Source of the DNA: Patescibacteria group bacterium UBA1875 | Lineage (GTDB): Bacteria > Patescibacteriota > CPR2 > UBA1875 | Direction: 5' to 3' | Assembly (NCBI GenBank): GCA_002338125.1 | Contig: DDHN01000008.1 | Location: forward strand, 113,094 to 176,152 | DNA: 63,059 nucleotides | In this document: in pieces, positions 10,978-43,776 of the stretch | Numbering within the stretch: the first letter of the stretch is position 1 | Layout: each line of letters opens with the position of its first letter | The notes under the pieces: generated by a model | What the model was told of the DNA's origin: nothing | The model's input: the letters and a program-made list of their open reading frames with translations, nothing else | The model's database searches: none | Translations under genes and position numbers: made by a program

Positions 10978-11006
10978 TTGACTTATATGCAATATTTTGG
11001 TATATT
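10978..11006 (+). promoter_or_regulatory. Sigma70-type promoter of island 1
   Basis: TTGACT (10978-10983), a 17-nt spacer, then TATATT (11001-11006) with an upstream TG (extended -10). Confidence 0.6.
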
Positions 11007-11013
11007 ATAGCGC

Positions 11014-11055
11014 ATCCGCTTCGGTGGATTGAACAATTTTCGACCTGTTAGGTCG
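11014..11055 (+). promoter_or_regulatory. Island 1 5' leader with two short hairpins
   Basis: ATCCGC-UUCG-GTGGAT (11014-11029) and CGACC-TGTTA-GGTCG (11041-11055). An AAGGAG SD lies at 11083-11088. Confidence 0.5.
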
Positions 11056-11093
11056 TTTGAACATTGAAAACATACCTAGTCTAAGGAGATATC

Positions 11094-11306
11094 ATGCGTT
11101 TTGCACTTCTTCCGCTTCTAGCAGCATCGATCATGCTCTTGGTGGGTATTGTCTTGTGTACAGATTGGAGGCCAGTTTCAAGGCTATTCAAGTCTCTGTA
11201 TCAAGACATTACTAATCCTAACCCGCTTTTCCCGGGACCATTCACTCGGTTCACGGGTATCATGCTTGGAACAGACATCGGCGAAGAGTCCAAGAAAGGA
11301 AGGTGA
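11094..11306 (+). CDS. Island 1 ORF-a: 70-aa protein with an N-terminal signal/anchor helix
   Basis: An AAGGAG SD lies 5 nt upstream of the ATG. The N-terminus (MRFALLPLLAASIMLLVGIVLC) is hydrophobic. No family recognised. Confidence 0.55.
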   Translation: MRFALLPLLAASIMLLVGIVLCTDWRPVSRLFKSLYQDITNPNPLFPGPFTRFTGIMLGTDIGEESKKGR

Positions 11307-11382
11307 AGGCGATGTATTTGGGTCCGTAACATTTCCTCATCGTTTGCGACAGAAAGGAAAACAACGATGAGGGAGGGGCAAC

Positions 11383-11652
11383 ATGAAGGGTTCAAGGTTC
11401 GACCATCGGGGTTACGAGATTTATCGCAACCCAGTTCCGGTAGAAATACTGGAAGAGATCGAAGGTAAGTTGACTCCTAGGGAGACAACTGGCTACGAGT
11501 TCGTTGTCTATCATGACGGTCTGCCGCTAGACATCAATGTCACGGCTCTTAATCGTCATCTTGGCCTCAAAGAGGTCAAGGAGTGGATCGATAGGCAGTT
11601 TGCAACACAAGCCGCAGCCGAGACCGACATTGTGTCGGCTCAGTCGAACTAG
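11383..11652 (+). CDS. Island 1 ORF-b: 89-aa soluble hypothetical protein
   Basis: A GAGGGAGGGG SD (11369-11378) precedes the ATG. No family recognised. Confidence 0.55.
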   Translation: MKGSRFDHRGYEIYRNPVPVEILEEIEGKLTPRETTGYEFVVYHDGLPLDINVTALNRHLGLKEVKEWIDRQFATQAAAETDIVSAQSN

Positions 11653-11661
11653 GGGAGGCAG

Positions 11662-12123
11662 ATGATGAAAACGGAAGAGAAGGTCGCATTTCTTGCCGAG
11701 ATGATCGAGGACTTCAATGCCCACGGTTGTCCAGGAAAGGCAGATACCGACAAGGGTCTCCACTATGCAAGGGAGATCATCGACTCGCTCCATCATTGCG
11801 AAAAGCCTGAGGAAGGGGCCGTATATCTCATTACGGCTCTTAGCTTCAAGGCCATTGTCGCGATGGAGGCAGGCTGCCATGCTGATGCGGCAGACTGTCC
11901 TTGTTTCGAAAGCTGCTACGTGTGGACACACGCAGCAGCTGCCAACCCATCCCGATCAATAGTCTCTCTGGTTAGCAAAGGGAGACGCTGCGAGATGGGT
12001 AATGTCGAGTGTTCACTGAACCTCGACAACCCTGGCCGAAGGCATCGTGAGAGCGAATCGCTTCTGGATGTTGATAAGGCCATGGCCGAGAGCTATGTTC
12101 CCGAATCCGGGGCGGCGTGGTAG
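11662..12123 (+). CDS. Island 1 ORF-c: 153-aa Cys/His-rich hypothetical protein
   Basis: A GGGGAGG SD (11652-11658) overlaps the ORF-b stop. It has 8 Cys, including HGC, HHC, GCH and DCPCFESC. Confidence 0.6.
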   Translation: MMKTEEKVAFLAEMIEDFNAHGCPGKADTDKGLHYAREIIDSLHHCEKPEEGAVYLITALSFKAIVAMEAGCHADAADCPCFESCYVWTHAAAANPSRSIVSLVSKGRRCEMGNVECSLNLDNPGRRHRESESLLDVDKAMAESYVPESGAAW

Positions 12124-12125
12124 CG

Positions 12126-12359
12126 ATGAACATAGAAATCATCGCCATGTGTATGGGTCGTGAGGGAACGGTTCTGCACGAGCCGTACACAGCAGCGAAT
12201 GTTGCTGCTGGTATCGTCCGTTCCGGTGGACGTGTCCTCGGAGTCGTCAAGTCAAACGTCGAAGGGGAGCCGATATTCCGGAAAACGGTAGAAATCGGTT
12301 CACCAGAAGAGATCAAGGAGTTCATTCTCGCTTTCTCAGGAGCTGAGGAGGGGGCATGA
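12126..12359 (+). CDS. Island 1 ORF-d: 77-aa hypothetical protein
   Basis: The ATG lies 2 nt after the ORF-c stop (an alternative GTG is at 12117). The stop overlaps the ORF-e start (ATGA). Confidence 0.5.
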   Translation: MNIEIIAMCMGREGTVLHEPYTAANVAAGIVRSGGRVLGVVKSNVEGEPIFRKTVEIGSPEEIKEFILAFSGAEEGA

Positions 12360-12565
12360 AGTGGTTCTGGGGTATCGTCTCCTTGGCAGTAATAACCTTA
12401 ATCGGTTTCGCTGCTGTTTGGGACCCAACCATTAGAGAGGCCGTAAGCGTTATTGCCTACTTGGCAATGGTTGCTGGCTTCTGGTGGATGGGGGTGAAAT
12501 TTGTTGGTCTTTGCGACGAAGTGAAGGCTAACAGTTTCGCAGCTTTCCATCGTGACAAGGACTAG
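12356..12565 (+). CDS. Island 1 ORF-e: 69-aa two-TM membrane protein
   Basis: A GAGGAGGGGG SD lies immediately upstream. There are two hydrophobic helices (FWGIVSLAVITLIGFAAVW and AVSVIAYLAMVAGFWWMGVKFVGL). Confidence 0.6.
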   Translation: MKWFWGIVSLAVITLIGFAAVWDPTIREAVSVIAYLAMVAGFWWMGVKFVGLCDEVKANSFAAFHRDKD

Positions 12566-12820
12566 GTGTTATCAGGCTCTGTTTCATACAGAGACAGCAC
12601 CTACTAGCAGATTGACTTCCGGGTAATACCTGGAGGCCGGATGCAGAGGGGGTTTTAGAGTTGTGAGCCCCTGCATCCGGCCGGTACTGGTCGTGCCAAC
12701 CCGTTCTCACAACGGGTACGACACTAAGGTACCGGTCGGTCTCCGAGTTAAAAACTCGGTCTGCGTCTAGGGATGACAGTTTTGCTTTGCGCGGCAAGGC
12801 TGTTATCCCTGATCATTCTA
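12566..12820 (+). ncRNA. Hairpin-dense non-coding 3' region of island 1 (candidate structured RNA)
   Basis: Six consecutive stable helices: 12577-12593, 12616-12636, 12636-12681, 12681-12735 (three stacked segments), 12743-12759 and 12769-12810. There is no plausible ORF with an SD. Confidence 0.45.
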
Positions 12821-12856
12821 CGGGCCCCAGTCTTCGGACGGGGCCCGTTCACTTTT
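12821..12856 (+). terminator. Island 1 rho-independent terminator
   Basis: CGGGCCCC-A-GTC-UUCG-GAC-GGGGCCCG (11-bp stem, UUCG loop) followed by TTCACTTTT. Confidence 0.75.
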
Positions 12857-12862
12857 AAAATA

Positions 12863-12891
12863 TTGACGAAAGTTTGTTTTTTTGATAATAT
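12863..12891 (+). promoter_or_regulatory. rplS promoter
   Basis: TTGACG, a 17-nt spacer, then TAATAT. The ATG is only about 12 nt downstream of the -10 and has no SD. Confidence 0.5.
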
Positions 12892-12903
12892 CTTCTGGCA
12901 ACT

Positions 12904-13626
12904 ATGAATACGCAATTATTAGAAAAAATAGAAAAAAGCCAGCTCAAGAAAGTTCCGGAAGTTCGTCCCGGTGATCTTGTTCGTGTTCATCAAAAGATTA
13001 AAGAAGGCAAAAAAGAAAGAATTCAGATATTTGAAGGAGTCGTTTTAAGGGTTAGGGGCGGTGGTCTTAGAAAATCTTTTATAGTAAGAAAGATATCCTT
13101 TGGTATTGGGGTTGAAAAGAGTTTCCTAATGCATGCTCCTAATATTATTAAAGTTGAAATCAAGAAAAGAGCGAAGGTCAGAAGGGCCTATTTGACTTAC
13201 CTTAGAAGACTGACGGGGAAAAAGGCTCGTCTTAAAGATGAACAATTTGATTCTTTGGTAGTAAATGTAGAGCCAGAGCCAATCGAAACTGATAAAGAAT
13301 CCGAAAAGGGAGAAAAAACCTCTGATAGTGAGATTGCTGAAATCGATCCAGCAAAAACAGCTAATGTGGAAGTAGTTGAAGTCCCTTTATCGGAAGTAGA
13401 AAAAGAAGAGATAAAACAAGCAGAAGCTGAAGATGAGACAAAAGAAGGTCTAGATGAAGATGATCATCAAAAAATCGAGATTGAAGAAGTAGAAAAAGGT
13501 ATCGAAGAGGCCGAAAAAGATCTAGAAAAAGGCAAGACTAAAAAAACCGATCAAGCCGAAAAAGAAAAAGAAGACATTTCCCAAGAAGAAATTAAAGAAG
13601 AAATAAAAGAAGAAAAAGAGGCTTAA
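12904..13626 (+). CDS. rplS: Ribosomal protein L19 with a long acidic C-terminal extension
   Basis: L19 core (RPGDLVRVHQKIKEGKKERIQIFEGVVL...), followed by about 125 Glu/Lys-rich residues. Confidence 0.9.
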   Translation: MNTQLLEKIEKSQLKKVPEVRPGDLVRVHQKIKEGKKERIQIFEGVVLRVRGGGLRKSFIVRKISFGIGVEKSFLMHAPNIIKVEIKKRAKVRRAYLTYLRRLTGKKARLKDEQFDSLVVNVEPEPIETDKESEKGEKTSDSEIAEIDPAKTANVEVVEVPLSEVEKEEIKQAEAEDETKEGLDEDDHQKIEIEEVEKGIEEAEKDLEKGKTKKTDQAEKEKEDISQEEIKEEIKEEKEA

Positions 13627-13628
13627 TA

Positions 13629-13654
13629 AAAGAACCGCAAGAAGCGGTTCTTTT
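13629..13654 (+). terminator. Terminator after rplS
   Basis: AGAACCGC-AAGAA-GCGGTTCT hairpin followed by TTTT. It is fused to TGATATAAT. Confidence 0.65.
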
Positions 13655-13668
13655 GATATAATCAAAAG

Positions 13669-14262
13669 ATGTTAAAACCTCATCTTGTATACGAGAAAAA
13701 AAATTGGCAAGTCGGGAAGATTGTTTGTGGGCTTGATGAGGTGGGTCGTGGTTGTGTAGCTGGTCCGGTTGTCGCTGCGGCTGTTGTGTTTGCGGAAGGG
13801 CATAACCCGCATAAAGATATTAGGGATTCTAAAACTCTTTCTGCAAAGAAAAGAGAAGAGCTTTTTGAATATATTCTTGTTGAGGCTTTTGATTATGGCA
13901 TTGGACTTGTCCCAGCAAGCGTAGTCGATAGTATTGGTATTAATGATTCTTGTAAAAAAGCAATGCATCTTGCGGTAAAAATGTTGAAAATAAAACCAGA
14001 TTGTTTGCTAATTGATGCAATCTCCTTACAATCAAAAATTCCTCAAATTTCTCTAATAAAAGGAGACACGATTTGCTACTCTATTTCGGCTGCTTCTATT
14101 GTTGCTAAAGTCTTTCGAGATAGAATTGTTGCCGGTCTTGATAATAGATATCCAGAATATGGTTTTTCAAGCCATAAAGGGTATGGTACAGCCAAGCATT
14201 TTGAAGCTATTAAAAAATATGGCTATACAAATGAACATCGCCAAACTTTTTTAAAAAAATGA
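13669..14262 (+). CDS. rnhB: Ribonuclease HII
   Basis: GLDEVGRGCVAGPVVAAAVV active-site region. 197 aa. Confidence 0.9.
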   Translation: MLKPHLVYEKKNWQVGKIVCGLDEVGRGCVAGPVVAAAVVFAEGHNPHKDIRDSKTLSAKKREELFEYILVEAFDYGIGLVPASVVDSIGINDSCKKAMHLAVKMLKIKPDCLLIDAISLQSKIPQISLIKGDTICYSISAASIVAKVFRDRIVAGLDNRYPEYGFSSHKGYGTAKHFEAIKKYGYTNEHRQTFLKK

Positions 14263-14280
14263 TTTTTAGCCAAAGAAAAC

Positions 14281-14349
14281 TTGACTATACAAAGTTTAAT
14301 TGATATAATTTATTTACTTGTCGAGCGGATCCCGGTCGACATTTTTCTT
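14281..14349 (+). promoter_or_regulatory. nusA promoter plus a terminator-like leader hairpin
   Basis: TTGACT, a 17-nt spacer, then TATAAT (14304-14309, TG-extended). This is followed by GTCGA..CGG-ATC-CCG..TCGAC (14320-14340) and then ATTTTTCTT. Confidence 0.5.
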
Positions 14350-14375
14350 GAAAAATATAAAAGAATGGAGAATTC

Positions 14376-15554
14376 ATGCAAACTCAATTTACGCAAGCAA
14401 TAGAACAGATTTGTGAAGAAAAAAATATTGCCAAAGATACAGTAATGGAAGCTGTTGAAGCGGCTTTAGCTGCTGCATATAAAAAAGATTATGGCGAAAA
14501 AGATCAAGAAGTCCGAGTAAAAATTAATGAGGGTTCAGGAGCAATCGAGGTTTTTGTCGAGAAAGAAGTTGTTGAAGAAGTCGAGAATCCAAACATGCAG
14601 ATTGCCTTAACTGCTGCCTCTAAGTTGAAAAAAGATATTAAGATCGGCGACACAATCGAAGTAATGGACTTACCAGCTGATTTCGGACGAATCGCAGCCC
14701 AAACTGCTAAACAGGTAATTGTCCAAAGGATTAGAGAAGCCGAAAGAGACATGGTTTTTTCAGAATATAAAGACAAGGAAGGCGAGATTGTCAGCTGTAT
14801 TGTTCAGCGAATAGAGGGTGATACGGTGATTTGTGACCTTGGTAAGGCTAGCGCTGTTCTTTATCGCAACGAGCAGATCCCAGGAGAACGATATTATCCG
14901 AATCAACGTTTTCGGGTATATATAGTTAAGGTGGAGCAAACTGCCAGAGGCCCTCAAATCGTTGTTTCCAGATCTCATCCAGGTGTTGTTAAGAAGCTTT
15001 TTGAATCTGAGGTGCCAGAAATTGCTACTGGTACAGTTGAGATTAAGGGTGTGGCGAGAGAAGCCGGAGGTCGAACAAAGATAGCTGTAGCCACTTCGGC
15101 AGATGGTGTTGATCCAGTAGGTTCATTTGTTGGACAGCGGGGTATCCGAGTTCAGTCGGTTATGAATGAAATAGGCGGTGAAAAGATTGATATTATTCTA
15201 TGGGATGAGGACCCAAAGATATATATTGAAAATGCCTTATCACCGGCGAAAATCACTGAAATTAATATAGATGAAAAAGAACAAAAGGCAATTATAAAAG
15301 TGCCTGAGGATCAGCTTTCATTGGCTATCGGCAAACAAGGGCAAAATGTTCGGTTGGCGGCGAAGCTTACTGGTTGGAATATTGATATAGAAGGAACGGA
15401 TATTTCGGGTATCGAAGGTGTTGAAGAAGCTGCTAAAACCCTGAGAAGAAAAGAAGACAAAACGGACTTAGAGGCAGCAATTATCGAAGCTGCTGCAAAG
15501 CAAAGTAATGCCGAAAAAGTTGAATCTTCCAATGAAGAAGAGAAGCCTAATTAG
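14376..15554 (+). CDS. nusA: Transcription termination/antitermination factor NusA
   Basis: 392 aa with an N-terminal domain, an S1 domain and two KH domains (LAIGKQGQNVRLAAKLTGW). GGAG SD. Confidence 0.9.
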   Translation: MQTQFTQAIEQICEEKNIAKDTVMEAVEAALAAAYKKDYGEKDQEVRVKINEGSGAIEVFVEKEVVEEVENPNMQIALTAASKLKKDIKIGDTIEVMDLPADFGRIAAQTAKQVIVQRIREAERDMVFSEYKDKEGEIVSCIVQRIEGDTVICDLGKASAVLYRNEQIPGERYYPNQRFRVYIVKVEQTARGPQIVVSRSHPGVVKKLFESEVPEIATGTVEIKGVAREAGGRTKIAVATSADGVDPVGSFVGQRGIRVQSVMNEIGGEKIDIILWDEDPKIYIENALSPAKITEINIDEKEQKAIIKVPEDQLSLAIGKQGQNVRLAAKLTGWNIDIEGTDISGIEGVEEAAKTLRRKEDKTDLEAAIIEAAAKQSNAEKVESSNEEEKPN

Positions 15555-15618
15555 TGCATCTTGACGATTAAAAATTATTTAGAAAGTGATATTGTATATC
15601 TCTGAAAGCGAGGTTTAA

Positions 15619-18126
15619 TTGTTGAATCAATTTGATAGATTCTCAGAAAATGCCAAATTAACCCTAGTAAACGCTCAAGAGCTAGCTCGAGCCGGGGGTT
15701 CCCCAGTGGTGGACACGGACCACATTCTTCTTGGTATGTTACTAACGAAGAATTCGGCTGCGGCTGATCTTTTGGAATCGGTTTCGCTTGACTTTGATAA
15801 AGCCAAGGCCGCTAGTGATGTAATATCTGGTTTAACCGGTGTAGTCAGGATAGGTGGCCTATCCTCTGATGCTCAGAGATTGCTTGAACTTTCAATGGGT
15901 ACTGCTAGCCAGTTTGCTTCACCGTACGTTGGCACCGAGCATATGCTATATGCCATTTTACTTCTTTCAGATTCAAAGGCCGGCAAAATTTTAATTGATA
16001 GCAAAGTTGATTTTGATTATTTGAGAAATGAGCTAGAACAAATATTCAAAAACCCGCAAGAAGAAATAGCCTCACCGACTTCTTTGCCGACTGAGCTAGG
16101 AGGATTCTCTTCCGTTGGCCCAAAGACCTCTAATTCGAAATCAAAAACCCCAGTACTAGATGGTTTTGCGACTGATCTTACTAAAATGGCTAGGGATGGA
16201 AAGCTTGACCCGGTAATTGGTCGAGAGGCAGAAATATCTCGAGTAGTCTCTATCCTAAATCGAAGAACGAAAAATAATCCGGTTCTGATCGGAGAACCAG
16301 GAGTAGGAAAAACTGCTATTATAGAAGGTCTTGCTCAGGAGATTGCTGATGAAACGGTTCCGGAAATATTATTGACCAAAAAAATAATGATGCTTGATCT
16401 AGCTTCGGTAATTGCAGGAACAAAATATAGAGGTGAATTTGAAGATCGTTTAAAGAGGATTATCAAAGAACTGAAAGAAAATGATGACATTATAATTTTT
16501 ATTGATGAGTTACATACAATAGTTGGAGCCGGTGCTGCGGAGGGAGCTATTGATGCAGCCAATATTTTCAAACCGGCTCTTTCTCGTGGTGAAGTTCAAG
16601 TTATTGGGGCAACAACACTTGATGAATATCGAAAATACATCGAAAAAGATTCTGCTCTTGAAAGACGACTTCAACCAGTGATAGTTTCGGAGCCCGGCAT
16701 TGATGAAACCATCAGAGTATTGAAGGGGATTGCTCCAAAGTATGAAGAGTACCATAACGTACGGATAACACCAGCTGCGATAGAAGCTGCTGCTAAGCTT
16801 TCTAAGCGCTATATCCCTGATCGGTTTTTACCGGACAAGGCAATTGACCTTCTTGACGAAGCGGCATCACTTCTTAAAGTTTCTAAGGGGGTTGTTTCTA
16901 AGGAAGTCCGCAATCTTGAAAAAAATTTAAGAGAAGTTCGTAATCTTAAAGAAAATGCTGTTTTAGAGCAAGAGTATGCCAAGGCAGCTGAATTTAAGCA
17001 GCAAGAGGAGATACTCGATAAGGAGTTGGAGAAAGTTCGTAGAAAAGAAGGACTTAATGGGAATGGTCTTAAAATAAATGAGGAAAATATTGCTCAGGTT
17101 ATTTCTAGCTCAACCGGTATCCCCATAACAAGGCTTATAGAAAAAGAACAAGCCAGTTTACTTAATCTTGAAAAGAAGTTAAAGAAGAGGATTGTTGGTC
17201 AAGATGAAGCAATATCGGAACTTGCATCAGCAATTAGGCGGGCCAGAACAGGTATTTCTGATGAGAAAAGACCTATTGGGTCTTTTGTATTTCTTGGACC
17301 GACCGGGGTAGGTAAAACAGAGTTAGCCAAAGCTTTGGCAGAGCAAATGTTTGGAGACGAAGAGGCCATTATAAAAATTGATATGAGTGAATTTATGGAA
17401 AAACACAACGTTTCCAGACTAGTTGGGGCCCCAGCTGGTTATGTCGGTTATGAAGAGGGCGGTCAGTTAACAGAAAAAGTTCGTCGTAAGCCATATGCAG
17501 TAATTTTATTTGATGAGATAGAAAAAGCCCATTCAGACGTTTTTAATATGCTACTTCAAATATTGGAAGATGGCTATCTTACAGACGCCAAGGGCCGCAG
17601 AGTCGATTTTCGAAATACTGTTATTATCATGACATCAAATATTGGTTCAAGTGAGTTTTATAGTACTCGGGAGATTGGTTTTACCAAGGAAACTACAAAA
17701 AAAGCTGTAAAAGAAATGCAAAAAAATATCGAAGAGAAAGTAGGTTCTGAGCTTAAAAAGAAGTTTAAGCCAGAGTTCCTTAACCGAATAGATAAAATTA
17801 TAATTTTCAGAGCATTAACGAAAAATGATGTCAAAAAAATTGTTACCAAGGAGCTAGCTAAGGTTAGTAAAAGACTTTTATCTCAAGATATTAAAATTAG
17901 TGTCACTGAACAAGCTAAAAATTTATTAATCGATAAAGGTTATGATATCGAAAATGGAGCCAGACCTCTTCGTAGAGTCATCCAGAATATGATTGAAGAC
18001 CCTTTAGCTAATGGTATATTAACTGGTGAATTTACCTCAGGTGATAAAGTGGCAGTCTTAAAAGAAGGCGATAGTTTAAAGCTGGTAAATGAAAGTAGTA
18101 AAAAGAAAAAAGCAATAACGAATTAA
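15619..18126 (+). CDS. clpC: Class I Clp/Hsp100 AAA+ chaperone (ClpC-like)
   Basis: Clp_N repeats, two Walker A sites ([10 protein letters not shown] and [10 protein letters not shown]) and a short middle coiled coil. TTG start. Confidence 0.85.
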
Positions 18127-18170
18127 TCTGTCTACTTGTTTTCTGATTCTTTTTATCTAATACTTTAAGC

Positions 18171-19511
18171 ATGGGAAAATTAAAAACATCTTATATATGT
18201 CAAAATTGTGGTGCCGTTTACCCTCGTTGGATGGGGCGCTGTGAATCCTGTAGGAATTGGAACACTTTAATAGAGGAGATTATCGAGGCTAAAAAAGGAG
18301 CCGTGAAAGCTAAGGCGACCAAGGTTACTGACTTGGCTGATAAAGGCAATGATGATAACTTACAAAGATTATTATCAGGTATTTCTGAGGTTGACCAAGT
18401 CTTAGGAGGGGGAATTGTCCCTGGCTCCTTAATCCTTATAGGCGGTGATCCAGGGATTGGCAAGTCTACTCTTGTTCTTGAGCTTTCTTCAAAGATCAAG
18501 GATACGCTATATATTTCAGGTGAGGAGTCCGAGTCTCAGGTCAGAATGAGAGCGGAAAGATTAAAAATTAAAGAAGGGGTAGCCCTACTCTCTGAAAATA
18601 ATATCGAAACTATCATCGCTACTATTGAAGCCGAAAAACCAAAACTGGTTGTTATTGATTCTATCCAAACTGTTTATTCGTCGGATATAGAAGGTGCCCC
18701 CGGTAATGTCAGCCAGCTCTCTCTTTGTGCCAGTAAGCTTATGAATTTAGCCAAAGAAAATCACATAGCGGTAATCATAATCGGTCATGTTACAAAACAA
18801 GGCAATATTGCTGGGCCCAGAGTGTTGGAGCATCTTGTAGATGTTGTTCTATACATAGAAGGTGATCGTTTTGGCTCCTTTCGAATCCTCAGAGGAGTGA
18901 AAAATCGATTTGGCTCAACGAACGAAGTTGGTATTTTTGAGATGACAAAGGAAGGCCTCAAACCAGTAAAAAACCCTTCGCAATTGATGATTGGGGAGCG
19001 AGCGAAAAATTCTCCGGGTTCGGTAATATTTCCAGCCATGGAGGGCACCAGATCGTTGTTATGTGAAATCCAGGCTCTTACTAGTTCAACTGCTTTTGGT
19101 TATCCTAAAAGAACTTCAAGTGGTTTTGACCTAAATAGGCTTTCACTCCTTACGGCTGTATTACAAAAACGTTGTGGACTTAATCTTTCAACCCAAGATA
19201 TTTATCTAAATATTGCCGGAGGTATAAAGATAAACGAACCGGCGGCAGACCTAGCGGTTTGTTTAGCGATTGCTTCGGTTTATAAAAACAGAGAATTTAA
19301 GGAAGATACTGTTTTGTTTGGAGAAATTGGTCTTGCAGGAGAAGTTCGTTCGGTGAATAATGTAGACAAGAGACTTATGGAGGCTCAAAAGCTTGGTTTC
19401 AAAAAGGCTATAATCCCCAAGTCTCGGGTAAAAGCCGAAGGCTCGAAGGCAATCGGCATTAATATAGTACAAGTCGCTTCTATCAAAGAAGCAATCAACA
19501 AAGCACTTTAA
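18171..19511 (+). CDS. radA: DNA repair protein RadA/Sms
   Basis: N-terminal zinc finger (CQNCGAVYPRWMGRCESC), Walker A GGDPGIGKST, the KNRFG motif and a Lon-like C-terminal domain. Confidence 0.9.
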   Translation: MGKLKTSYICQNCGAVYPRWMGRCESCRNWNTLIEEIIEAKKGAVKAKATKVTDLADKGNDDNLQRLLSGISEVDQVLGGGIVPGSLILIGGDPGIGKSTLVLELSSKIKDTLYISGEESESQVRMRAERLKIKEGVALLSENNIETIIATIEAEKPKLVVIDSIQTVYSSDIEGAPGNVSQLSLCASKLMNLAKENHIAVIIIGHVTKQGNIAGPRVLEHLVDVVLYIEGDRFGSFRILRGVKNRFGSTNEVGIFEMTKEGLKPVKNPSQLMIGERAKNSPGSVIFPAMEGTRSLLCEIQALTSSTAFGYPKRTSSGFDLNRLSLLTAVLQKRCGLNLSTQDIYLNIAGGIKINEPAADLAVCLAIASVYKNREFKEDTVLFGEIGLAGEVRSVNNVDKRLMEAQKLGFKKAIIPKSRVKAEGSKAIGINIVQVASIKEAINKAL

Positions 19512-19533
19512 CATTAATCGAGGGGGAGTAATT

Positions 19534-20487: not shown

Positions 20488-20488
20488 A

Positions 20489-24413: not shown

Positions 24414-24498
24414 CCCTAAATTCCTGGGATAGCGCTTGTTGAATTATACCGAAAAACCCCTATAATGTAAAGGCAGGAAAGCTAATCAAAAGGATAAT

Positions 24499-28227: not shown

Positions 28228-28256
28228 TTGACAAAAATTAAATTTATGATATTATA
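28228..28256 (+). promoter_or_regulatory. Sigma70-type promoter of island 2
   Basis: TTGACA (28228-28233), then TGaTATTAT (-10 at 28250-28255), starting 6 nt after the recG stop. Confidence 0.6.
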
Positions 28257-28265
28257 GCGATATTA

Positions 28266-28302
28266 TCCGGTGCTAATACCGGAAGTCTCGATTGTGGTCG
28301 AG
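28266..28302 (+). promoter_or_regulatory. Island 2 5' leader with two short hairpins
   Basis: TCCGGT-GCTAAT-ACCGGA (28266-28283) and CTCGA-TTGTGG-TCGAG (28287-28302). An AAGGAAG SD lies at 28311-28317. Confidence 0.5.
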
Positions 28303-28325
28303 TTGACATTAAGGAAGTGATTTGA

Positions 28326-29258
28326 GTGTCTAGTGAGGGCAACGTCTTTGTTGTACGTCTCGACTTCCAGCTCAGCCCTTCGATCGACTTGTTCGATCTT
28401 GAAGACGGAGAAGGAAGGGTCTTCCTGAATCATGCCCCTGAGGTCATTAAAGAGAAGGGAGAATTTGTCCTCGTGCAATCAGAGGGACAATTTGGTTTCT
28501 CCCTTATCCCAGCTGCACCGATGAAAGCTGGGTACAAGAGGGTTGATTCCATCAAGAAGCTTGTGGAGTTGGTGCTTGAGTTTGGGCTGTGTAAGCCCTT
28601 CGTCCCGCGTGGCTACCATGGAATTGTCGAAAAGGGTTTGAGCGATCAGCTCCATAAGGCCTACAACGAGTGCCGATTCGGTTCCTACGTCAAGCTTCCT
28701 GATTCAAGTGTGGTGTTGGTGGTCAGCGATGAAGCTCTTGACCCAGGAACGTTTGTTGAGGCTCGGCGAGCCTGGAACAACGTTCTCGTTGTTGGGCGAG
28801 CTGAGTTCGAGAGCCGGCAACCATTCCGACACGAGAACTGGGCTAGCTTTGTAAGCGCTCTGATGGCTAGCTACCCTCAGCAAGTCAAAGGGCACTTGAC
28901 TCCTCGTAAGCCGCCAAGGAGGATTCAGGGAACTTGGGCCGGTCCCGACCTCGACTACATTAACCGTCGGGGGCAAGCCTCAACTCGTTTGCTTGTTGAC
29001 GGACAAGAAGAAGGGTCTGTCGTTACCGTGTATTTCACGCGTTGCGACAAAAACCCTTCCGTTCCGATCAGAACTGGTGAGGCTGTTGAGGTTTGGTATG
29101 CCGGTAAAGGTAACATTGCGGTTATCCCTTACGCTGGCCGAACCACTCAAGTCCTGCGACCAAGAGAGCTAGTCAGAGAGCTGGGAGTGCAAAGAGACAG
29201 TCTCGATGAGAGAAAACTCTCATCATACGACAACGTTCGCGTGGTCTACACTTCCTGA
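28326..29258 (+). CDS. Island 2 ORF: 310-aa soluble hypothetical protein
   Basis: The GTG start lies 8 nt downstream of AAGGAAG. There is no TM helix or signal peptide. The protein is beta-rich and Arg-rich, and no family is recognised. Confidence 0.65.
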   Translation: MSSEGNVFVVRLDFQLSPSIDLFDLEDGEGRVFLNHAPEVIKEKGEFVLVQSEGQFGFSLIPAAPMKAGYKRVDSIKKLVELVLEFGLCKPFVPRGYHGIVEKGLSDQLHKAYNECRFGSYVKLPDSSVVLVVSDEALDPGTFVEARRAWNNVLVVGRAEFESRQPFRHENWASFVSALMASYPQQVKGHLTPRKPPRRIQGTWAGPDLDYINRRGQASTRLLVDGQEEGSVVTVYFTRCDKNPSVPIRTGEAVEVWYAGKGNIAVIPYAGRTTQVLRPRELVRELGVQRDSLDERKLSSYDNVRVVYTS

Positions 29259-29271
29259 AGTAGTCCCTTGT

Positions 29272-29300
29272 AACGGGCGCCTATCGAGGCGCCCGTTTTC
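29272..29300 (+). terminator. Island 2 rho-independent terminator
   Basis: AACGGGCGCC-TATCGA-GGCGCCCGTT followed by TTC and a T-rich tract. Confidence 0.75.
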
Positions 29301-29885: not shown

Positions 29886-29913
29886 AAAGAAACAACTTGA
29901 TGATGTTTCTTTT

Positions 29914-29998
29914 TGGTGCCGGAGAGAGGACTCGAACCTCCACGGGAATACCCACTAGTTCCTAAGACTAGCGCGTCTACCAGTTCCGCCACTCCGGC
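29914..29998 (-). tRNA. tRNA-Leu (anticodon UAG), type II with a long variable arm, CCA encoded
   Basis: The reverse complement folds as acceptor GCCGGAG/CTCCGGC, anticodon stem CTAGT/ACTAG with loop CTTAGGA, T-arm GGAGG-TTCGAGT-CCTCT and 3' ACCA. Upstream on the minus strand lies TTGAAA-N17-TAAAAT (30010-30038). Confidence 0.9.
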
Positions 29999-30121
29999 TA
30001 GCAAAGCATATTTTAGCAGAATAATAATTATATTTCAATGTATTCTTAGTAGGATTGTTGGTTGTCTTTGATGGTTTTGTCTGTTAGAATATCAAGGCAT
30101 TAAGTAATTTTGGGAGGATAA

Positions 30122-30430: not shown

Positions 30431-30438
30431 GGAGTCTG

Positions 30439-31734: not shown

Positions 31735-31757
31735 TGAAGTGATATAATGGAGGTGCT

Positions 31758-32354: not shown

Positions 32355-32368
32355 TTATCAAATTGTTC

Positions 32369-32397
32369 TTGACATTGTGGATAATTGTTGATAATAT
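32369..32397 (+). promoter_or_regulatory. rpoBC promoter
   Basis: TTGACA, a 17-nt spacer, then TAATAT, followed by a leader of about 100 nt. Confidence 0.5.
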
Positions 32398-32501
32398 TTT
32401 TCTTGCCTAATTTATTTTGGATTTATATAGCGTGAGGCAGGGTCAACCGACCAACTACAAAGTAATATTAAACCCTTAAAGGAAAGAAAGGGCGTTTTTT
32501 A

Positions 32502-39000: not shown

Positions 39001-39807
39001 TCCGATCTAGTAGAAACCGAAGATTACGATATCAAAGGCTACAAGCCGTCTGTTAAGAATAATGCTTTTGTTGAAGCAAGAGATATTATTGCAGAACGTG
39101 AAGGAAAGCGACCGATTCGAGCTAAGTCAAATGGGATTATTAAAACTCAGGGTAATAAGATGATTCTTACCAAAGAGGCTGATATGAGAGAATACTTGGT
39201 CTCTTCACAGGCAAAAGTTTTAGTACCTGACGGAGAGAAAGTAGCTCGTGGCACTCAGGTTACTGAGGGTTCCTGGAATCTTCATAAGGCACTTGAACTT
39301 TGTGGTGAAGAAGCTGTTCAGCGATATATCACTTTGGAAATTCAGAAAATTTATGCTAATCAGGGTCAAACAATTGATGATAAGCATATTGAAATAATCA
39401 TTCGTCAGATGTTTTCAAGGGCTCGAATCGATGACCCGGGAGATACAAAGTTTATAACAGGTGATATTGTATCTCGAAGAAGTCTGCTTGACGAGAACAC
39501 TAGGGTTAAAAAGGTAGGTAAAAAACCAGCAAACTTTGAAAATTTGTTGCTTTCTATCTCTAAGGTATCTCATTCTTCGGATTCTTGGCTTTCAGCTGCT
39601 TCGTTTCAGGAGACAAATCGAGTCTTGATCGCTGCTGCCATTGAAGGGAAGGTTGATTATCTAAAAGGTCTTAAAGAAAACGTAATCATTGGTAAACTTA
39701 TCCCGGTTGGTACCGGTTATGATTCTAGTATCGTAACTCCAGGTCCGATTGAAAAAAGAAATGATAATGTCGATACTACTGACCAAAAGGATCCCGAGGA
39801 AGAATAA
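35995..39807 (+). CDS. rpoC: DNA-directed RNA polymerase beta' subunit
   Basis: ATG 35995 lies 6 nt after the AAGGAGG SD and overlaps the rpoB end. It contains the NADFDGDQM catalytic motif and an N-terminal zinc-binding Cys cluster. Confidence 0.95.
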   Translation: MPNNKEEKTAQDFSAIRISIASPEDILKWSHGEVTKPETINYRTLKPEKDGLFCERIFGPDKDWECYCGKYKKIRHKGVICDKCGVEVTRSVVRRERMGHIELAVPVTHIWFLRGVPSSIGLVFGMSVRDLERVVYFISYIVTEVDEEARLEMAKSLEKELKEKKKEYTKNIEDEKELKEKLENLEQSLKDAKSELAGIQKYTILSELKYREYSLKFGNVFKAEIGTEAILGLLKEIDLKKLEKDLETEVAESTGQKRKKALKRLKIIQGLLSANIRPEWMIIKNLPVIPPGLRPMVQLDGGRFATADLNDLYRRVINRNNRLKKLIAQDAPEVIIRNEKRMLQESVDALLDNNARRDKAAGGQNRRKLRSIADMLKGKQGRFRQNLLGKRVDYSGRSVIVAGPELSIDQCGLPKMMALELFKPFVISRLVGEGIAHNIKSASRMIERGSSEVWDALDNVIENKYVLLNRAPTLHRLGIQAFLPVLIEGKAIQLHSLVCEAYNADFDGDQMAVHVPLSRMAQAEAGQIMISKQNLLKPAAGEPVVKPSHEMTLGIYWMTQIEEGAKGEGKVFSSTDEAITFYNLGYIHIRAKIKVRIKDDLIETTVGRIVFNQRLPEDMPFINEVINKKTTVNIIKNLYDNYGPEVTADFLDGVKNLGFKFVTRSGLSLSMDDATVPEEKQNILDEAEKKILEIRDQYEQGFITEDEKYTLSVKTWEEAKEKIQSVMENAQDSNSFLTISKDSGARGDIKQINQIAGMKGNVINAAGRIIELPIKSNYKEGLSALEFFISTHGTRKGFSDTALRTSDSGYLTRRLVDVAQEVTVTEKDCGSKNGLLVTREESRRIGEEFSQRLISRYTAEKIVDEKTGEIIVQRGTLIDEKVFADIDSHNINEVKIRSILECETHWGVCQKCYGSDLSNGQPVAMGTAVGIIAAQSIGEPGTQLTMRTVNTGGVVGVDITQGLPRVQELFEARKPKGEAVLAEIDGIVKTEKEGKMKKITIISDLVETEDYDIKGYKPSVKNNAFVEARDIIAEREGKRPIRAKSNGIIKTQGNKMILTKEADMREYLVSSQAKVLVPDGEKVARGTQVTEGSWNLHKALELCGEEAVQRYITLEIQKIYANQGQTIDDKHIEIIIRQMFSRARIDDPGDTKFITGDIVSRRSLLDENTRVKKVGKKPANFENLLLSISKVSHSSDSWLSAASFQETNRVLIAAAIEGKVDYLKGLKENVIIGKLIPVGTGYDSSIVTPGPIEKRNDNVDTTDQKDPEEE

Positions 39808-39877
39808 ATAATATTGAAAAAACCTTAAAACGTGATAAAATCGTACGAGTCATAGTGACGCAATATAAAGGAAAATA

Positions 39878-40285
39878 ATGCCAACAGTAAATCAATTAGT
39901 AAGAAAAGGACGAAAGTCAAAAACCAAGAAATCAAAATCACCGGCTCTTGGTCGGAACTTTAATACTTTGAAAAACAGAGGTCGGCCGGGTAACTCACCT
40001 TTTAAAAGAGGCGTTTGTGTAAAGGTGTCGACGGCTACTCCTAAAAAGCCGAACTCTGCACTTCGGAAAATCGCTCGTGTCCGCCTTACTAACGGTATGG
40101 AAGTAACGGCATATATCCCGGGAATAGGTCATAACCTACAAGAGCACAGCGTAGTTATGATTAGGGGAGGGAGGGTAAAAGACCTACCTGGTGTTAGGTA
40201 CCATATTGTTAGAGGAGCTTTGGATACCAGTGGCGTATCTGATAGAAAGAAAGGTCGTAGTAAATATGGGGCAAAGAAGGCATAA
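39878..40285 (+). CDS. rpsL: Ribosomal protein S12
   Basis: MPTVNQL...[10 protein letters not shown] signature. First gene of the str operon. Confidence 0.95.
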
Positions 40286-40761
40286 TGGCTAGAGATCCAA
40301 GAAGAACAACCAAGAGAATTCCAGCCCCCGATAAACGCTACAACAATGTTTTGGTAGCTAAGTTTATCAACAAAGTAATGCTAGACGGAAAAAAATCATT
40401 AGCCGAAAACGTTTTTTATCGAGCTATGGATATTGTAGCTGAAAAAACCAAAAAAGACCCTTTGCAAATTTTTGAAGCCGCCTTAAAAAACGCCAGTCCA
40501 TTTGTCCAGACTCGTTCAAAAAGAGTCGGAGGCTCTAATTATCAAATACCAGTCGAAGTAAAGGGCGATCGTAAAAATCATTACGGAATTATTTGGCTAA
40601 GAGATGCTGCCAGAGCAAGAAAGGGAGCTTCTTTCGAAGAGCGCCTAGCAGCTGAGCTAATTGATGCAGCTGAGGGTAACGGCGCAGCTGTTAAGAAAAA
40701 AGAAGATACTCATAAGATGGCTGAGGCCAACAAGGCTTTTGCCCATTTTGCGAGATTTTGA
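40285..40761 (+). CDS. rpsG: Ribosomal protein S7
   Basis: Conserved S7 sequence (YQIPVEV...). The start overlaps the rpsL stop. Confidence 0.95.
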   Translation: MARDPRRTTKRIPAPDKRYNNVLVAKFINKVMLDGKKSLAENVFYRAMDIVAEKTKKDPLQIFEAALKNASPFVQTRSKRVGGSNYQIPVEVKGDRKNHYGIIWLRDAARARKGASFEERLAAELIDAAEGNGAAVKKKEDTHKMAEANKAFAHFARF

Positions 40762-40780
40762 TTAAAGCACAAGGGAGAAA

Positions 40781-42871
40781 ATGGCTAGAGATTATAGTTT
40801 GGAAAAAACAAGGAATATTGGCATAATTGCGCATATAGATGCTGGTAAAACAACCGTGACCGAAGGAATTTTGTATCTAACTGGTAGGACTCATAAAATT
40901 GGAGAAGTCCATGAAGGTGAGGCTACAATGGACTGGATGGAACAAGAGCGGGAGCGGGGAATCACCATTACTTCGGCTGCGACAACTTGTTTTTGGCAAG
41001 ACAATCGAATAAATATTATCGACACCCCTGGGCACGTAGATTTTACTGTTGAGGTTGAACGGTCTCTTAGAGTTCTTGACGGAGCTGTTACTATTTTTGA
41101 TGGAAAAATGGGAGTTGAGCCTCAGTCAGAAACTGTTTGGCGTCAGGCCGATAAGTATCATGTCCCTAGAATGTGTTTTATTAACAAAATCAATCAAACT
41201 GGTGGCGATTTCTATAAATCTCTAGACTCAATAAAAGAGCGATTGTCAAAAAACGCCTACCCAATTCAAGTACCAATTGGTGTGGAGCAAAGCATTAACG
41301 GTGTTGTCGATTTGGTGGAATTGAAATCATATACATATAATGAATATCATGACAAAAAACTAGTTGTAGGCGATGTCCCTGAGGATATGAAGGAAAAATG
41401 CGAAAAACTTCGAGAAGAACTTTTAGAGAAAGCGGTAGAAGCAGATGAATCTTTGATGGAAAAATATCTTGGAGGTGAAGATTTAACTATTGAAGAATTC
41501 AAGACTGCTATAAGGAAGAGTGTTCTTGCTGGTGACTTTTTCCCGGTTCTTGGTGGAGATGGACGAGGGGTGATTGTCGAAACTCTCCTTGATGCTATTG
41601 TCGATTACCTACCAACTCCACTTGATGTCCCTCCTGTGACTGGTCTTGACCCTAAAACTGGCGAAGAGATAGTAAGAAAGGCTAGTGACGAAGAACCTTT
41701 CGCTGCATTAGCATTTAAGATAGCTACAGACCCGTTCGTTGGAAAGTTAGCATTTTTTAGGGTCTACTCTGGTGTAATTAAAGCCGGCTCTTATGTATAT
41801 AACTCTACTACGGGTGATAAAGAACGTTTAGGCCGAATAGTTAGGCTTCACGCTAATCATCGTGAAGATGTAGACGAAGTTTATGCCGGAGAAATTGCTG
41901 CTGCTGTTGGCTTGAAGGGAACAACAACAGGTGATACTTTGTGTGACCCATCTAATCCAATTGTTTTAGAGGCAATTACTTTTCCTGACCCAGTTATAAC
42001 TATTGCCATTGAGCCAAAGACAAAAGCAGACCAGGAAAAGATGGGTATTGCTTTGGCTAAACTAGCCGAAGAAGATCCGACCTTTGTAGTAAAATCAGAT
42101 GAAGAAACAGGGCAGACCGTAATTTCTGGTATGGGTGAGCTTCATCTAGAAATTATCGTCGATAGAATGAAGCGAGAATTTAAGGTAGAAGCCAATATCG
42201 GTAAACCGCAAGTTGCCTACAAAGAAACGATTAAAGAAAAAGCCCAGGCTGAAGGTAAATATATTAAACAGTCCGGAGGAAGAGGTCAGTATGGACATGT
42301 TTGGCTTGAGCTTGAGCCACTAGAAGCTGGTTCTGGTTTTGAGTTTGTTGATAAGATTGTTGGTGGTGCTGTTCCGAAAGAATTCATAGGGCCAACCCAA
42401 CAAGGTATTGTTGAGGCAATGGCCAATGGTGTAATTGCCGGATATCCGGTAGTTGATGTTCGAGCAACTTTGTATGATGGCTCTTTTCACGATGTTGACT
42501 CATCAGAAATGGCCTTTAAGATTGCCGGGAGCATGGCATTTCAGTCAGGTTTCAAAAAAGCAAAACCGATTATTCTTGAACCTGTTATGAAGGTCGAAGT
42601 ACTTACGCCCGAAGAGTTTATGGGTGATGTTATGGGAGATTTGAATTCAAAGAGGGGTAAGATTCAAAATATGGAAGATAGAGCCCAAACAAAAGTAATT
42701 GATGCGATGGTACCTTTATCGGAAATGTTTGGTTATGCTACTCAGCTACGCTCTATAACTCAGGGTCGAGCCTCATATGTTATGGAATTTGATCATTATG
42801 AAGAGGTTCCTGGTAATATAGCGGAAGAGATAAAAGCGGCTCGGGGAACAAAAGAAGCAACCGAAGAATAG
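40781..42871 (+). CDS. fusA: Elongation factor G
   Basis: G motifs AHIDAGKTT and DTPGH. 696 aa. Confidence 0.95.
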
Positions 42872-42875
42872 AATA

Positions 42876-42908
42876 AATAATGAGGCCAAGTCAGGCCTCA
42901 TTATTTTA
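42876..42908 (+). terminator. Terminator after fusA
   Basis: 12-bp stem AATAATGAGGCC/GGCCTCATTATT with a 6-nt loop, followed by TTT. Confidence 0.7.
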
Positions 42909-42933
42909 CGAAGCTGTTAATTTAGGCTATAAT
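42905..42933 (+). promoter_or_regulatory. Sigma70-type promoter of island 3
   Basis: TTTACG, a 17-nt spacer, then TATAAT (42928-42933). Confidence 0.5.
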
Positions 42934-42976
42934 ATTGATAACGTTAATACGAGAAACTTGAAGGCAGGTGAGGAAG

Positions 42977-43129
42977 ATGCTTTCGAGAACAAGAGAAAGA
43001 GTAGCAAACATTATCGCATGCTCTTTGCTCTCGCTCTTTTTCCTCATCCTTAAACAATTAGTTCTGTCAGCTGTTACCGGCTTGATTGTCTTTTGTGATA
43101 GCTTTTCAAAGCCAACGTGGAAGGAGTGA
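42977..43129 (+). CDS. Island 3 ORF-a: 50-aa hydrophobic peptide (absent from the ORF track)
   Basis: GGTGAGGAAG SD. MLSRTRERVANIIACSLLSLFFLILKQLVLSAVTGLIVFCDSFSKPTWKE, with 1-2 TM segments. Confidence 0.5.
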   Translation: MLSRTRERVANIIACSLLSLFFLILKQLVLSAVTGLIVFCDSFSKPTWKE

Positions 43130-43131
43130 TT

Positions 43132-43278
43132 ATGGGTCTCCAAATGCTTGGTATTATTCTAATGATTGTCTTTATGGCTATCGTGGGTGGTTTGTTGACA
43201 AGAGTCTACGTCAAACGCCTTGATGAACAGGCCGCAATGTACCTCGATCATGAGGACCAGATCATCTCTGAGCTTTGA
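43132..43278 (+). CDS. Island 3 ORF-b: 48-aa single-TM peptide (absent from the ORF track)
   Basis: The AAGGAG SD overlaps the ORF-a stop and the ATG lies 2 nt after that stop. MGLQMLGIILMIVFMAIVGGLL is followed by an acidic tail. Confidence 0.5.
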   Translation: MGLQMLGIILMIVFMAIVGGLLTRVYVKRLDEQAAMYLDHEDQIISEL

Positions 43279-43290
43279 GGGGGGAGTGTG

Positions 43291-43611
43291 ATGACCAGAA
43301 AGAAAGCTGACAGGCTGTGCGCTAAAGGCTTGGCAGCTGACCCAGACTATTGCTTGTATGATGAAGGAAGTGTCTGCCCGTGTGAACGGTACTACCAGAA
43401 ACTGACAAGGCCTTCGCTTGGTCGATTACTTCTTTCAACTATTACGTTGCAAAAGGATGAAACCGCGTCGTGTGTTGGTTGTTTGACGGAATCTCAGACA
43501 GCGTGTCCGTCATGTGTCAACAGTTCGGCTCACGAACGGTTGCTGGCAGCCTGTCCCCCGATCCGAGGAGGTTCTGCCGATGAAGGAATTCATTGCTTCG
43601 GGTGGCGGTAG
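43291..43611 (+). CDS. Island 3 ORF-c: 106-aa Cys-rich protein
   Basis: A GAGGGGGGAG SD precedes ATG 43291 (a GTG lies at 43288). It has 10 Cys, including VCPC, CVGC and CPSC. Confidence 0.6.
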   Translation: MTRKKADRLCAKGLAADPDYCLYDEGSVCPCERYYQKLTRPSLGRLLLSTITLQKDETASCVGCLTESQTACPSCVNSSAHERLLAACPPIRGGSADEGIHCFGWR

Positions 43612-43693
43612 CTACCTTCTTGTTGGTATCACGGTCCTTGTTTGTCTGACTGGTGGGGCGATTCATTACAATCGAATTCGTCCTCGGCGCTAA
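43580..43693 (+). CDS. Island 3 ORF-d: 37-aa single-TM peptide (absent from the ORF track)
   Basis: GAGGAGG SD at 43565-43571. It overlaps the ORF-c end by 32 nt. MKEFIASGGGSYLLVGITVLVCLTGGAIHYNRIRPRR. Confidence 0.45.
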   Translation: MKEFIASGGGSYLLVGITVLVCLTGGAIHYNRIRPRR

Positions 43694-43734
43694 TTGTCAA
43701 AGGAGGAGAGAGTGGCCTGTGTAGCACCTTAGTT

Positions 43735-43776
43735 GGCCCCGGTTACAATATTGTAATCCGGGGCCTTCTTTATATT
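43735..43776 (+). terminator. Island 3 rho-independent terminator
   Basis: GGCCCCGG-TTACAA..TTGTAA-(T)-CCGGGGCC extended hairpin followed by TTCTTTATATT. Confidence 0.75.

Follow-up and report, generated by a model that had tools for sequence, protein, structure and literature searches.

Atypical base composition is routinely taken as a sign of recent horizontal transfer. Phage morons, which reside in prophages and are considered recent arrivals, and genomic islands or islets are among the described systems that come closest to the three GC-rich segments reported here from a 63,059-nt stretch of DNA of Patescibacteria group bacterium UBA1875 (contig DDHN01000008.1; "the window" below denotes this whole stretch). 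We number these segments as cassettes 1 to 3 (C1, C2 and C3), which together carry ten open reading frames (ORFs). Like morons, the cassettes are self-contained, with a promoter and a terminal hairpin, sit between conserved genes and have an odd composition, but the genes around them are chromosomal housekeeping genes with no phage genes near, and C2 is old, vertically inherited and of maintained composition. Like genomic islands and islets, they deviate in composition, consist of orphan genes and vary in content between relatives (L086, the closest syntenic relative that we recovered, versus the window), but they come without an integrase or an adjacent tRNA and without a detectable donor, C2 has not ameliorated although its synonymous divergence is saturated, and a whole protein family shares its excess. 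Unlike integron gene cassettes, the units carry their own promoters, and the window holds no integrase ORF.

Two kinds of RNA also invite comparison. Hairpins at the 5' end, very strong ribosome-binding sites (RBSs) and strong 3' hairpins stabilise mRNA in Bacillus and E. coli, and the cassettes share this STAB-SD-type architecture (SD, Shine-Dalgarno) of 5' hairpins, very strong SD sites and stable 3' hairpins; they differ in being shifted in composition over the whole transcript body, whereas the known cases concern the ends only. GC-rich intergenic segments of AT-rich bacteria are moreover a known source of structured non-coding RNAs, the basis of the GC-IGR approach (PMC6429828, PMC11109978). 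The cassettes resemble such RNAs in being GC-rich within an AT-rich genome, in a C1 3' region that folds beyond shuffled sequence and in a C2 leader that covaries, but they are mostly protein-coding, match no Rfam family, and have a raised G+C that includes synonymous sites. Our literature search found nothing relevant on GC-rich islands in candidate-phyla bacteria, and no published description of a protein-coding family whose large GC excess is confined to its own transcript and persists over deep divergence in AT-rich hosts. Judging from sequence comparisons, the high G+C reported here is not the leftover of a recent transfer but an old, actively maintained property that is confined to the transcript, at least in C2.

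Measured in 300-nt windows, the G+C content of the window averaged 0.386 (standard deviation 0.046), and long runs above 0.48 were found at 11201-12900, 28351-29300 and 43201-43800; besides these there were three short 300-nt blips, within clpC, a penicillin-binding protein gene and rplB. The three islands span approximately 11.0-12.9 kb (C1), 28.2-29.3 kb (C2) and 42.9-43.8 kb (C3) and are flanked, according to Pfam labels, by dnaE and rplS, by recG and an rsmD-type gene (Cons_hypoth95), and by fusA and tuf, respectively; the spacer between fusA and tuf is 997 nt in the window and 57-295 nt in the other bacteria sampled. The G+C content at third codon positions (GC3) was 0.42-0.59 in the ten cassette ORFs compared to 0.23-0.36 in backbone genes, and the first and second positions (GC1 and GC2) were raised as well. 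Since the rise at third positions involves both G and C, the excess is free of strand asymmetry. Summed over the cassettes, Arg outnumbers Lys (66 versus 47), the reverse of the backbone, where Lys lies far above Arg. An earlier note on this DNA, made from the letters alone, had described three compositionally distinct segments between core genes with a preference for Arg over Lys, and these measurements bear it out.

Breaks of this kind would also arise if GC-rich foreign contigs had been chimerically joined into an AT-rich bin. In independent assemblies from JGI and Logan, however, C1 turned up at 6 or more places, C2 on 3 contigs and C3 at 4 places, with contigs matching the window at 99.9-100% identity over every junction. 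The exact cassette proteins with the same flanks occurred in several JGI metagenomes (prefixes Ba2Water, OilBA2 and Ba2oil) and in assemblies of several SRA runs, and orthologous loci of other species share the layout. Oil-reservoir samples containing this genome include JGI 3300003536, 3300003534 and 3300003661 and the runs SRR1367222, SRR1375011 and SRR14709827. Because independent assemblies contain the same junctions, a chimera is excluded for practical purposes, and we give it next to no chance. Among these strains, there were no single-nucleotide polymorphisms (SNPs) in C1 or C2 and one, synonymous, in C3c (at 43402), and no presence/absence polymorphism of the cassettes was seen.

The features of C2, all on the plus strand, are as follows (positions in the window).
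28228-28255, + strand: C2 promoter, TTGACA-16-TATTAT, 11 of 12 positions in a consensus scan, extended -10 TG
28256-28325, + strand: C2 5' leader with hairpin 1 (28266-28283), hairpin 2 (28287-28302), an invariant UUGACA (28303-28308) and then the SD, from a four-ortholog comparison
28326-29258, + strand: C2 gene, 310 aa, from orthologs, codon-position pattern and an AlphaFold model
29272-29297, + strand: C2 terminal hairpin, 11 bp, GC-rich, followed by TTTTCAATC; fold z = -5.1

Three orthologs of C2 were found, at 55, 54 and 46% protein identity; two occupy the same slot between recG and rsmD in other genomes, and the third lies on a 1.2-kb contig. The promoter is kept at the orthologous loci L003, L004 and L005. 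Between these genomes recG is 73-74% and C2 54-55% identical, and L003/L004 is the closest pair for recG and C2 alike, indicating that the divergence of C2 is congruent with that of its flanks. Nucleotide identity was higher at second than at first codon positions and far lower at third positions, and the length of the gene is conserved, from which we conclude that C2 is coding. At conserved residues, four-fold sites were saturated (0.21-0.33 identical versus 0.27 expected), as they were in recG and tyrS. GC3 of C2 was 0.55, 0.59, 0.63 and 0.65 in the four genomes, with flanks at 0.27-0.41. The comparison thus shows C2 as an old, vertically inherited gene that has stayed GC-rich past synonymous saturation. 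Its leader, too, is conserved in structure: across the four orthologs, pairing extends to 94% of cells and compensatory changes occur in 6 of the 13 pairs, a result matched by 0 of 500 shuffles. This two-hairpin leader had been overlooked in the earlier reading, as had the structured non-coding 3' part of C1 described below. The earlier note had proposed that the cassettes were laterally acquired or lineage-specific, and had named beforehand homologs at the same loci with the same composition as the finding that would speak against it; for C2 this is what we found, and together with the saturated synonymous sites and the flank-congruent divergence it refutes lateral acquisition of this cassette.

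The C2 family extends well beyond these orthologs. When 1.84 billion representative proteins were searched exhaustively with a profile, only 10 reached E <= 0.001, none of which carries a Pfam domain save one large repeat protein that matches over a 43-residue stretch. Six distant members (P0015, P0016 and P0018-P0021; 19-31% identity to C2) were examined, leaving out the repeat protein (P0017), and their loci compare with the neighbouring genes as listed.
L116: gene GC3 0.76, flank GC3 0.36
L117: gene GC3 0.58, flank GC3 0.43
L118: gene GC3 0.72, flank GC3 0.40
L119: gene GC3 0.88, flank GC3 0.26-0.39 (12 neighbouring genes)
L124: gene GC3 0.68, flank GC 0.34
L125: gene GC3 0.70, flank GC3 0.50

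All six are GC-rich single genes (GC3 0.58-0.88; flanks 0.26-0.50), each full-length gene is preceded by a near-consensus promoter and a short hairpin leader, and a hairpin of 10-12 GC-rich bp stands at the 3' end of every locus that reaches that far. Genomic contexts vary, with the gene following murT-gatD in L119 and L117 and recG in the window's group. The protein that was left out, P0017, is a surface-type protein of 1591 aa (Big_2 and Listeria-Bacteroides repeats) in which ten repeats match positions 53-95 of the C2 profile; the first C2 barrel may therefore share a short module with a cell-surface repeat. The public record of L125 (GCA_020026565.1, JAHQYO010130459.1) begins, at positions 1-19, with AGATGTGTATAAGAGACAG, which is the Nextera transposase adapter sequence, so that this record is contaminated with adapter at the contig end.

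The excess follows the boundaries of the inferred transcript. At nine loci the G+C content was 12-33% in the promoter, 35-58% in the leader, 52-63% in the coding sequence and 43-66% in the 3' hairpin region, falling to 24-40% in the next 80 nt downstream where these were cleanly readable, and C1 and C3 show the same step. Since the step coincides with the transcript boundaries, raised G+C is a property of the transcribed unit.

These data bear on the idea that the cassettes are young, unameliorated islets recently acquired from a GC-richer bacterium, plasmid or phage, as the sharp compositional break and the lack of homologs for C1 and C3c might suggest, and as would suit the shorter dnaE-rplS gap of distant relatives and the presence in L086 of different GC-rich cassettes, one of them where the window has none (both described below). 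Such an origin is hard to reconcile with the same-locus C2 orthologs and with a GC excess that is present in every lineage examined. We found the family in no GC-rich genome, plasmid or virus among 5.8 billion proteins, the 1.84 billion representatives or IMG/VR, the last scanned with a C2 alignment; the promoters are host-type, that of C2 being conserved among orthologs; and the strains lack presence/absence polymorphism, though C1 and C2 are also SNP-free. As for mobility genes, we found no ORF for an integrase or transposase in or beside any cassette, in agreement with the earlier note, and no significant sequence similarity among the three cassettes, no dedicated search for flanking direct repeats having been made. 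The sole tRNA, a Leu tRNA on the minus strand (29914-29998), is separated from the end of C2 by rsmD and a distance of about 600 nt; it is also the only Rfam match of the window at the gathering threshold, and no match in 10900-13000 had E below 0.98. We therefore regard recent acquisition as rather unlikely, if still deserving of weight.

The remaining two cassettes consist of the following features. For C1:
10978-11006, + strand: C1 promoter, TTGACT-17-TATATT, 10 of 12 positions in a consensus scan, extended -10 TG
11009-11093, + strand: C1 5' leader with two small hairpins (11015-11028 and 11041-11055), each followed by TTGAACA, and then AAGGAG; from the sequence and a scan for a hairpin plus TTGA(A)CA
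11094-11306, + strand: C1a, 70 aa, hydrophobic N-terminal segment; ORF with an AAGGAG SD, called as a gene in public assemblies
11383-11652, + strand: C1b, 89 aa, acidic, soluble; ORF with an exact copy in at least 6 assemblies
11662-12123, + strand: C1c, 152/153 aa, soluble, Cys/His-rich; ORF
12126-12359, + strand: C1d, 77 aa, soluble; ORF whose start is uncertain (GTG 12117, ATG 12126 or a later ATG)
12356-12565, + strand: C1e, 69 aa, two hydrophobic segments; ORF whose start overlaps the C1d stop (ATGA)
12566-12850, + strand: non-coding, highly structured C1 3' region, from folding; ends in the hairpin at 12820-12848
12820-12848, + strand: C1 terminal hairpin, predicted fold, end of the structured 3' region

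For C3:
42905-42933, + strand: C3 promoter, TTTACG-17-TATAAT, 10 of 12 positions in a consensus scan
42977-43129, + strand: C3a, 50 aa, hydrophobic peptide; ORF with an alternative GTG start at 42968
43132-43278, + strand: C3b, 48 aa, one hydrophobic segment and an acidic tail; ORF
43291-43611, + strand: C3c, 106 aa, 11 Cys; ORF
43580-43693, + strand: C3d, 37 aa, hydrophobic peptide with an AGGAGGT SD; ORF overlapping the end of C3c
43735-43765, + strand: C3 terminal hairpin, 13 bp, followed by TTCTTTATATT; fold z = -2.4

The ten cassette ORFs, C1a-e among them, had no significant match in Pfam, PHROGs, PADLOC or NCBIfam, consistent with the earlier note, which could not assign them to any family. 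When C1c and C3c were used as a joint query against the 5.8 billion proteins, C1c matched only itself and C3c nothing, and a PDB search found no relative of either. For the small membrane candidates C1e and C3a, no holin or toxin family matched significantly; PADLOC gave one weak match (E = 0.0024 over 40 residues). Roles in toxin/immunity, metal or redox chemistry, or partner interaction, which the earlier note had offered as possibilities, are unsupported by any of these searches.

Each segment thus has a promoter of its own, of sigma-70 type and matching 10-11 of 12 consensus positions, as had been claimed. The 80 nt upstream of the inferred C1 start have a G+C of 0.24, and the C3 promoter lies directly past the fusA terminator hairpin (42875-42906). 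The GGAGG-type RBSs of the earlier note are likewise confirmed: an SD core of 4-7 nt stands at the proper distance in 9 of the 10 cassette ORFs, and predicted SD pairing is stronger in the cassettes than in the backbone (median -11.7 versus -6.3 kcal/mol; Mann-Whitney p = 1.4e-4). In the minimum free energy (MFE) fold, a 13-bp hairpin (11332-11344 / 11363-11375) takes up the SD of C1b (GAGGGAGG) as its 3' arm, such that translation of C1b would depend on opening of the helix.

The leaders share further short elements. CTTGAA(A) stands immediately upstream of the SD in the leaders of C3 (42936-42976), of the L086 cassette (6465-6489) and of L124 (~245-276), and ATTGAAAA is found in the C1 leader; these could represent a common leader motif or chance. 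A shared homologous leader of C1 and C2, in which the hairpin plus TTGA(A)CA looks alike by eye, was considered but is unproven, as a covariance model of the C2 leader misses that of C1. An antitermination leader of the boxB-boxA type, suggested by no more than a resemblance (UUGAAAAC), was considered and dropped.

Is the GC-rich sequence of C1 and C3 coding at all? If the cassettes were mainly non-coding structured RNAs, their ORFs would be chance products of low stop-codon density. C1 is strongly folded throughout, its 3' 285 nt reaching z = -8.6, and public pipelines made no gene call for C3a, C3c and C3d. In contrast, C2 is clearly coding by its codon-position pattern and conserved length, no Rfam family matches, and same-strand ORF coverage in C1 and C3 (0.91-0.95) exceeds that of dinucleotide shuffles (P <= 0.002). 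This coverage, the properly spaced SD sites and the operon-style packing of the cassette ORFs, which abut or overlap, support, but do not prove, that the ORFs of C1 and C3 are coding, with the exception of 12566-12850, in which we found neither a credible ORF nor an Rfam match. That the cassettes are mainly non-coding appears quite improbable to us, a largely non-coding role being an alternative chiefly for C1.

Within that exception, the 298 nt from 12563 to 12860 have an MFE of -150.9 kcal/mol (z = -8.6) on the plus strand versus -132.2 on the minus strand. The JGI annotation of contig L110 places at 5202-5519 (window 12584-12901), on the minus strand, a 318-nt "gene" with a 27-residue product, a call that coincides exactly with the structured C1 3' region; over 12584-12901, ARAGORN and Rfam found no transfer-messenger RNA or other RNA.

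The promoter-to-terminator layout, the atypical composition and the many small membrane peptides recall phage morons, and there are sub-threshold matches to holin families (Pfam Phage_holin_2 for C1e, E = 0.046; a PHROG holin, E = 0.11). The cassettes might in that case be what is left of a prophage or of another mobile element, as modules of moron-like or lysis type domesticated at three sites. Yet genes for phage structure, replication or integration are absent beside them, no PHROG match is significant, IMG/VR holds no relative of C2, and fold matches of C2 in BFVD are weak and heterogeneous. We see very little prospect for a phage origin.

Two observations concern genes near the cassettes. 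The ribosomal protein L19 encoded by rplS (12904-13626), downstream of C1, has 240 aa with a Glu/Lys-rich C-terminal extension of about 120 aa, and its L086 version has 285 aa; bacterial L19 is typically about 115 aa long. Between rpsJ and the ribosomal protein gene that follows it lies a 40-nt inverted repeat (45459-45498; 90% self-complementary), which may be an attenuator or terminator heading the S10 operon.

The three segments are genuine parts of the chromosome. We propose that they serve an AT-rich Patescibacteria-type bacterium as accessory transcription units specific to its lineage. Transcription of each would start at its near-consensus sigma-70 promoter and pass through a leader that has small hairpins near the 5' end, translation would begin at the unusually strong SD sites, and a very stable GC hairpin would close the unit. 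C1 and C3 would encode fast-evolving small membrane peptides and Cys-rich proteins, C1 adding a strongly folded 3' RNA of about 290 nt. A GC-rich, folded message with hairpins at both ends and a strong RBS would be expected to be unusually stable among AU-rich, often leaderless messages. The proposal as a whole, accessory units whose G+C is maintained by selection on the transcribed region, has in our judgement an even chance of being right. The most likely cause of the high G+C is, we infer, selection on the RNA, namely on its stability: the excess outlasts synonymous saturation, affects all codon positions as well as the untranslated ends, and stops at the promoter and the 3' hairpin, and folding exceeds the prediction from composition. 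That 5' hairpins, strong RBSs and 3' hairpins stabilise known bacterial messages also favours stable transcripts.

Folding was evaluated in 150-nt windows as z against dinucleotide shuffles, with these means.
C1 coding part: mean z -2.7
C1 3' non-coding part: mean z -6.1
Nine C2-family genes: mean z -0.9 to -3.2
C3: mean z +0.1
Backbone genes: mean z -0.75 to +0.2
The absolute MFE per 150 nt was about twice that of backbone genes.

Several results weigh against selection on the RNA or limit its reach. Shuffled sequence folds almost as well as C3 (z +0.1) and the C2 of the window (z -0.9); should selection act on the RNA, it would favour overall composition and not a particular fold. Avoidance of short nuclease motifs was rejected as a cause, as no 3- to 5-mer was depleted beyond usual stop-codon effects. 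All three units are closed by a GC-rich hairpin, as the earlier note had described, with a stem of 9-13 bp, but canonical U-tracts are lacking: the T-tracts are interrupted and a consensus terminator scan called none of the 3' hairpins, so that these are only putative sites of transcription termination. Orthologs of C1 or C3 were not found in our searches, so the persistence of high G+C cannot be extended to them, and for these two cassettes the lateral acquisition proposed earlier is neither upheld as recent transfer nor replaced by old residence. The comparison of syntenic gaps suggested by the earlier note gave a divided answer, the gap between recG and rsmD being filled by C2 orthologs and that between dnaE and rplS being only 103-141 nt, hence empty, in the distant relatives L107-L109, which fits a gain of C1. 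The content of the islands also differs in L086, as fits gain and turnover.

A different cause of the excess would be local GC-biased mutation, or biased gene conversion at recombination hot spots, for example during transformation via flanking homology arms. A rise of GC at all three codon positions that is symmetric in G and C would be in keeping with this, as would the location of the units between highly conserved genes and the turnover of island content among relatives. The step in G+C, however, sits at the transcript start and the 3' hairpin with no decay into the flanks, C2 and its flanks agree in phylogeny, and folding z is below what composition alone predicts. The size of the effect in L119 (GC3 0.88 versus about 0.33) is, to our knowledge, far beyond reports of bacterial biased gene conversion. 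We hold this mechanism to be distinctly unlikely.

Turnover is best seen in L086, whose PIN-TRAM protein is 61% identical to that of the window. It has a GC-rich segment directly upstream of rplS and, after clpC, an extra GC-rich cassette of 1.7 kb (6430-8170 of JGI contig Ga0172371_10004715), at a position that in the window is a spacer of 45 nt. The five ORFs of this cassette again encode small proteins, some membrane-bound and some soluble; the L086 cassettes have no sequence similarity to those of the window. Two membrane proteins of the extra cassette are paralogous (26% identity, E = 5e-7), and its 3' end is structured (z = -5.8). In a scan of genome contigs with rpoB, the best match was 61% identical and cassette homologs were present in none of the matches listed. 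By these comparisons, GC-rich cassettes recur in this lineage with positions and contents turning over, while the C2 family is widely retained; the term lineage-specific in the earlier note was apt.

The product of C2 resembles no Pfam or PDB entry in sequence. An AlphaFold model built with 10 sequences (pLDDT 86.4, pTM 0.62; a 4-sequence model, with pLDDT 48.6, was unusable) is almost all-beta, with three consecutive beta-barrels and a helix after each. It resembles tandem OB-fold proteins (CTC1, HIN-200, Unr, SSB/RPA-like) in having three small barrels each with a helix, but differs from them in sequence, and its Foldseek matches are weak (E 3e-4 to 1e-2, TM 0.1-0.3), which again tempers our proposal. 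These matches are mostly to tandem OB-fold nucleic-acid binders (CTC1 of CST, HIN-200, the cold-shock domains of Unr, the NfeD C-terminal barrel, and viral SSB or LEF-3). Since the model shows three OB-like barrels, C2 is probably a cytoplasmic nucleic-acid binder with three such domains, which we offer as a hint and not as a classification. A more speculative extension, to which we attach a slim chance, is that the C2 family is an undescribed kind of gene whose composition is itself selected, its folded, GC-rich transcript acting as a partner of the protein that it encodes. The three-OB-fold protein might, for instance, bind or package its own and other cassette RNAs, giving rise to a composition-defined regulon or a ribonucleoprotein particle; such RNAs would then escape the decay and translation regime of the AU-rich, largely leaderless messages.

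In several backbone genes that come first in their operons, the start codon lacks an SD and is preceded, at about 6-10 nt, by the end of a TATAAT-like box (start codons at window positions 2463, 6741, 12904, 13669, 26168, 29340 and 61971), which suggests that leaderless mRNAs are common in this organism, unlike the long structured leaders of the cassettes.

The GC3 of the C2 family lies 0.15 to 0.55 above that of its AT-rich hosts, across saturated lineages, and the excess ends at transcript boundaries. If selection on RNA is the cause, island detection based on composition would misclassify such genes, and these reduced, uncultured bacteria would possess a small group of messages of special construction, probably very stable, that encode wholly uncharacterised products. 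The C2 family would thereby offer a concrete, testable case for selection on whole-transcript composition in bacteria.

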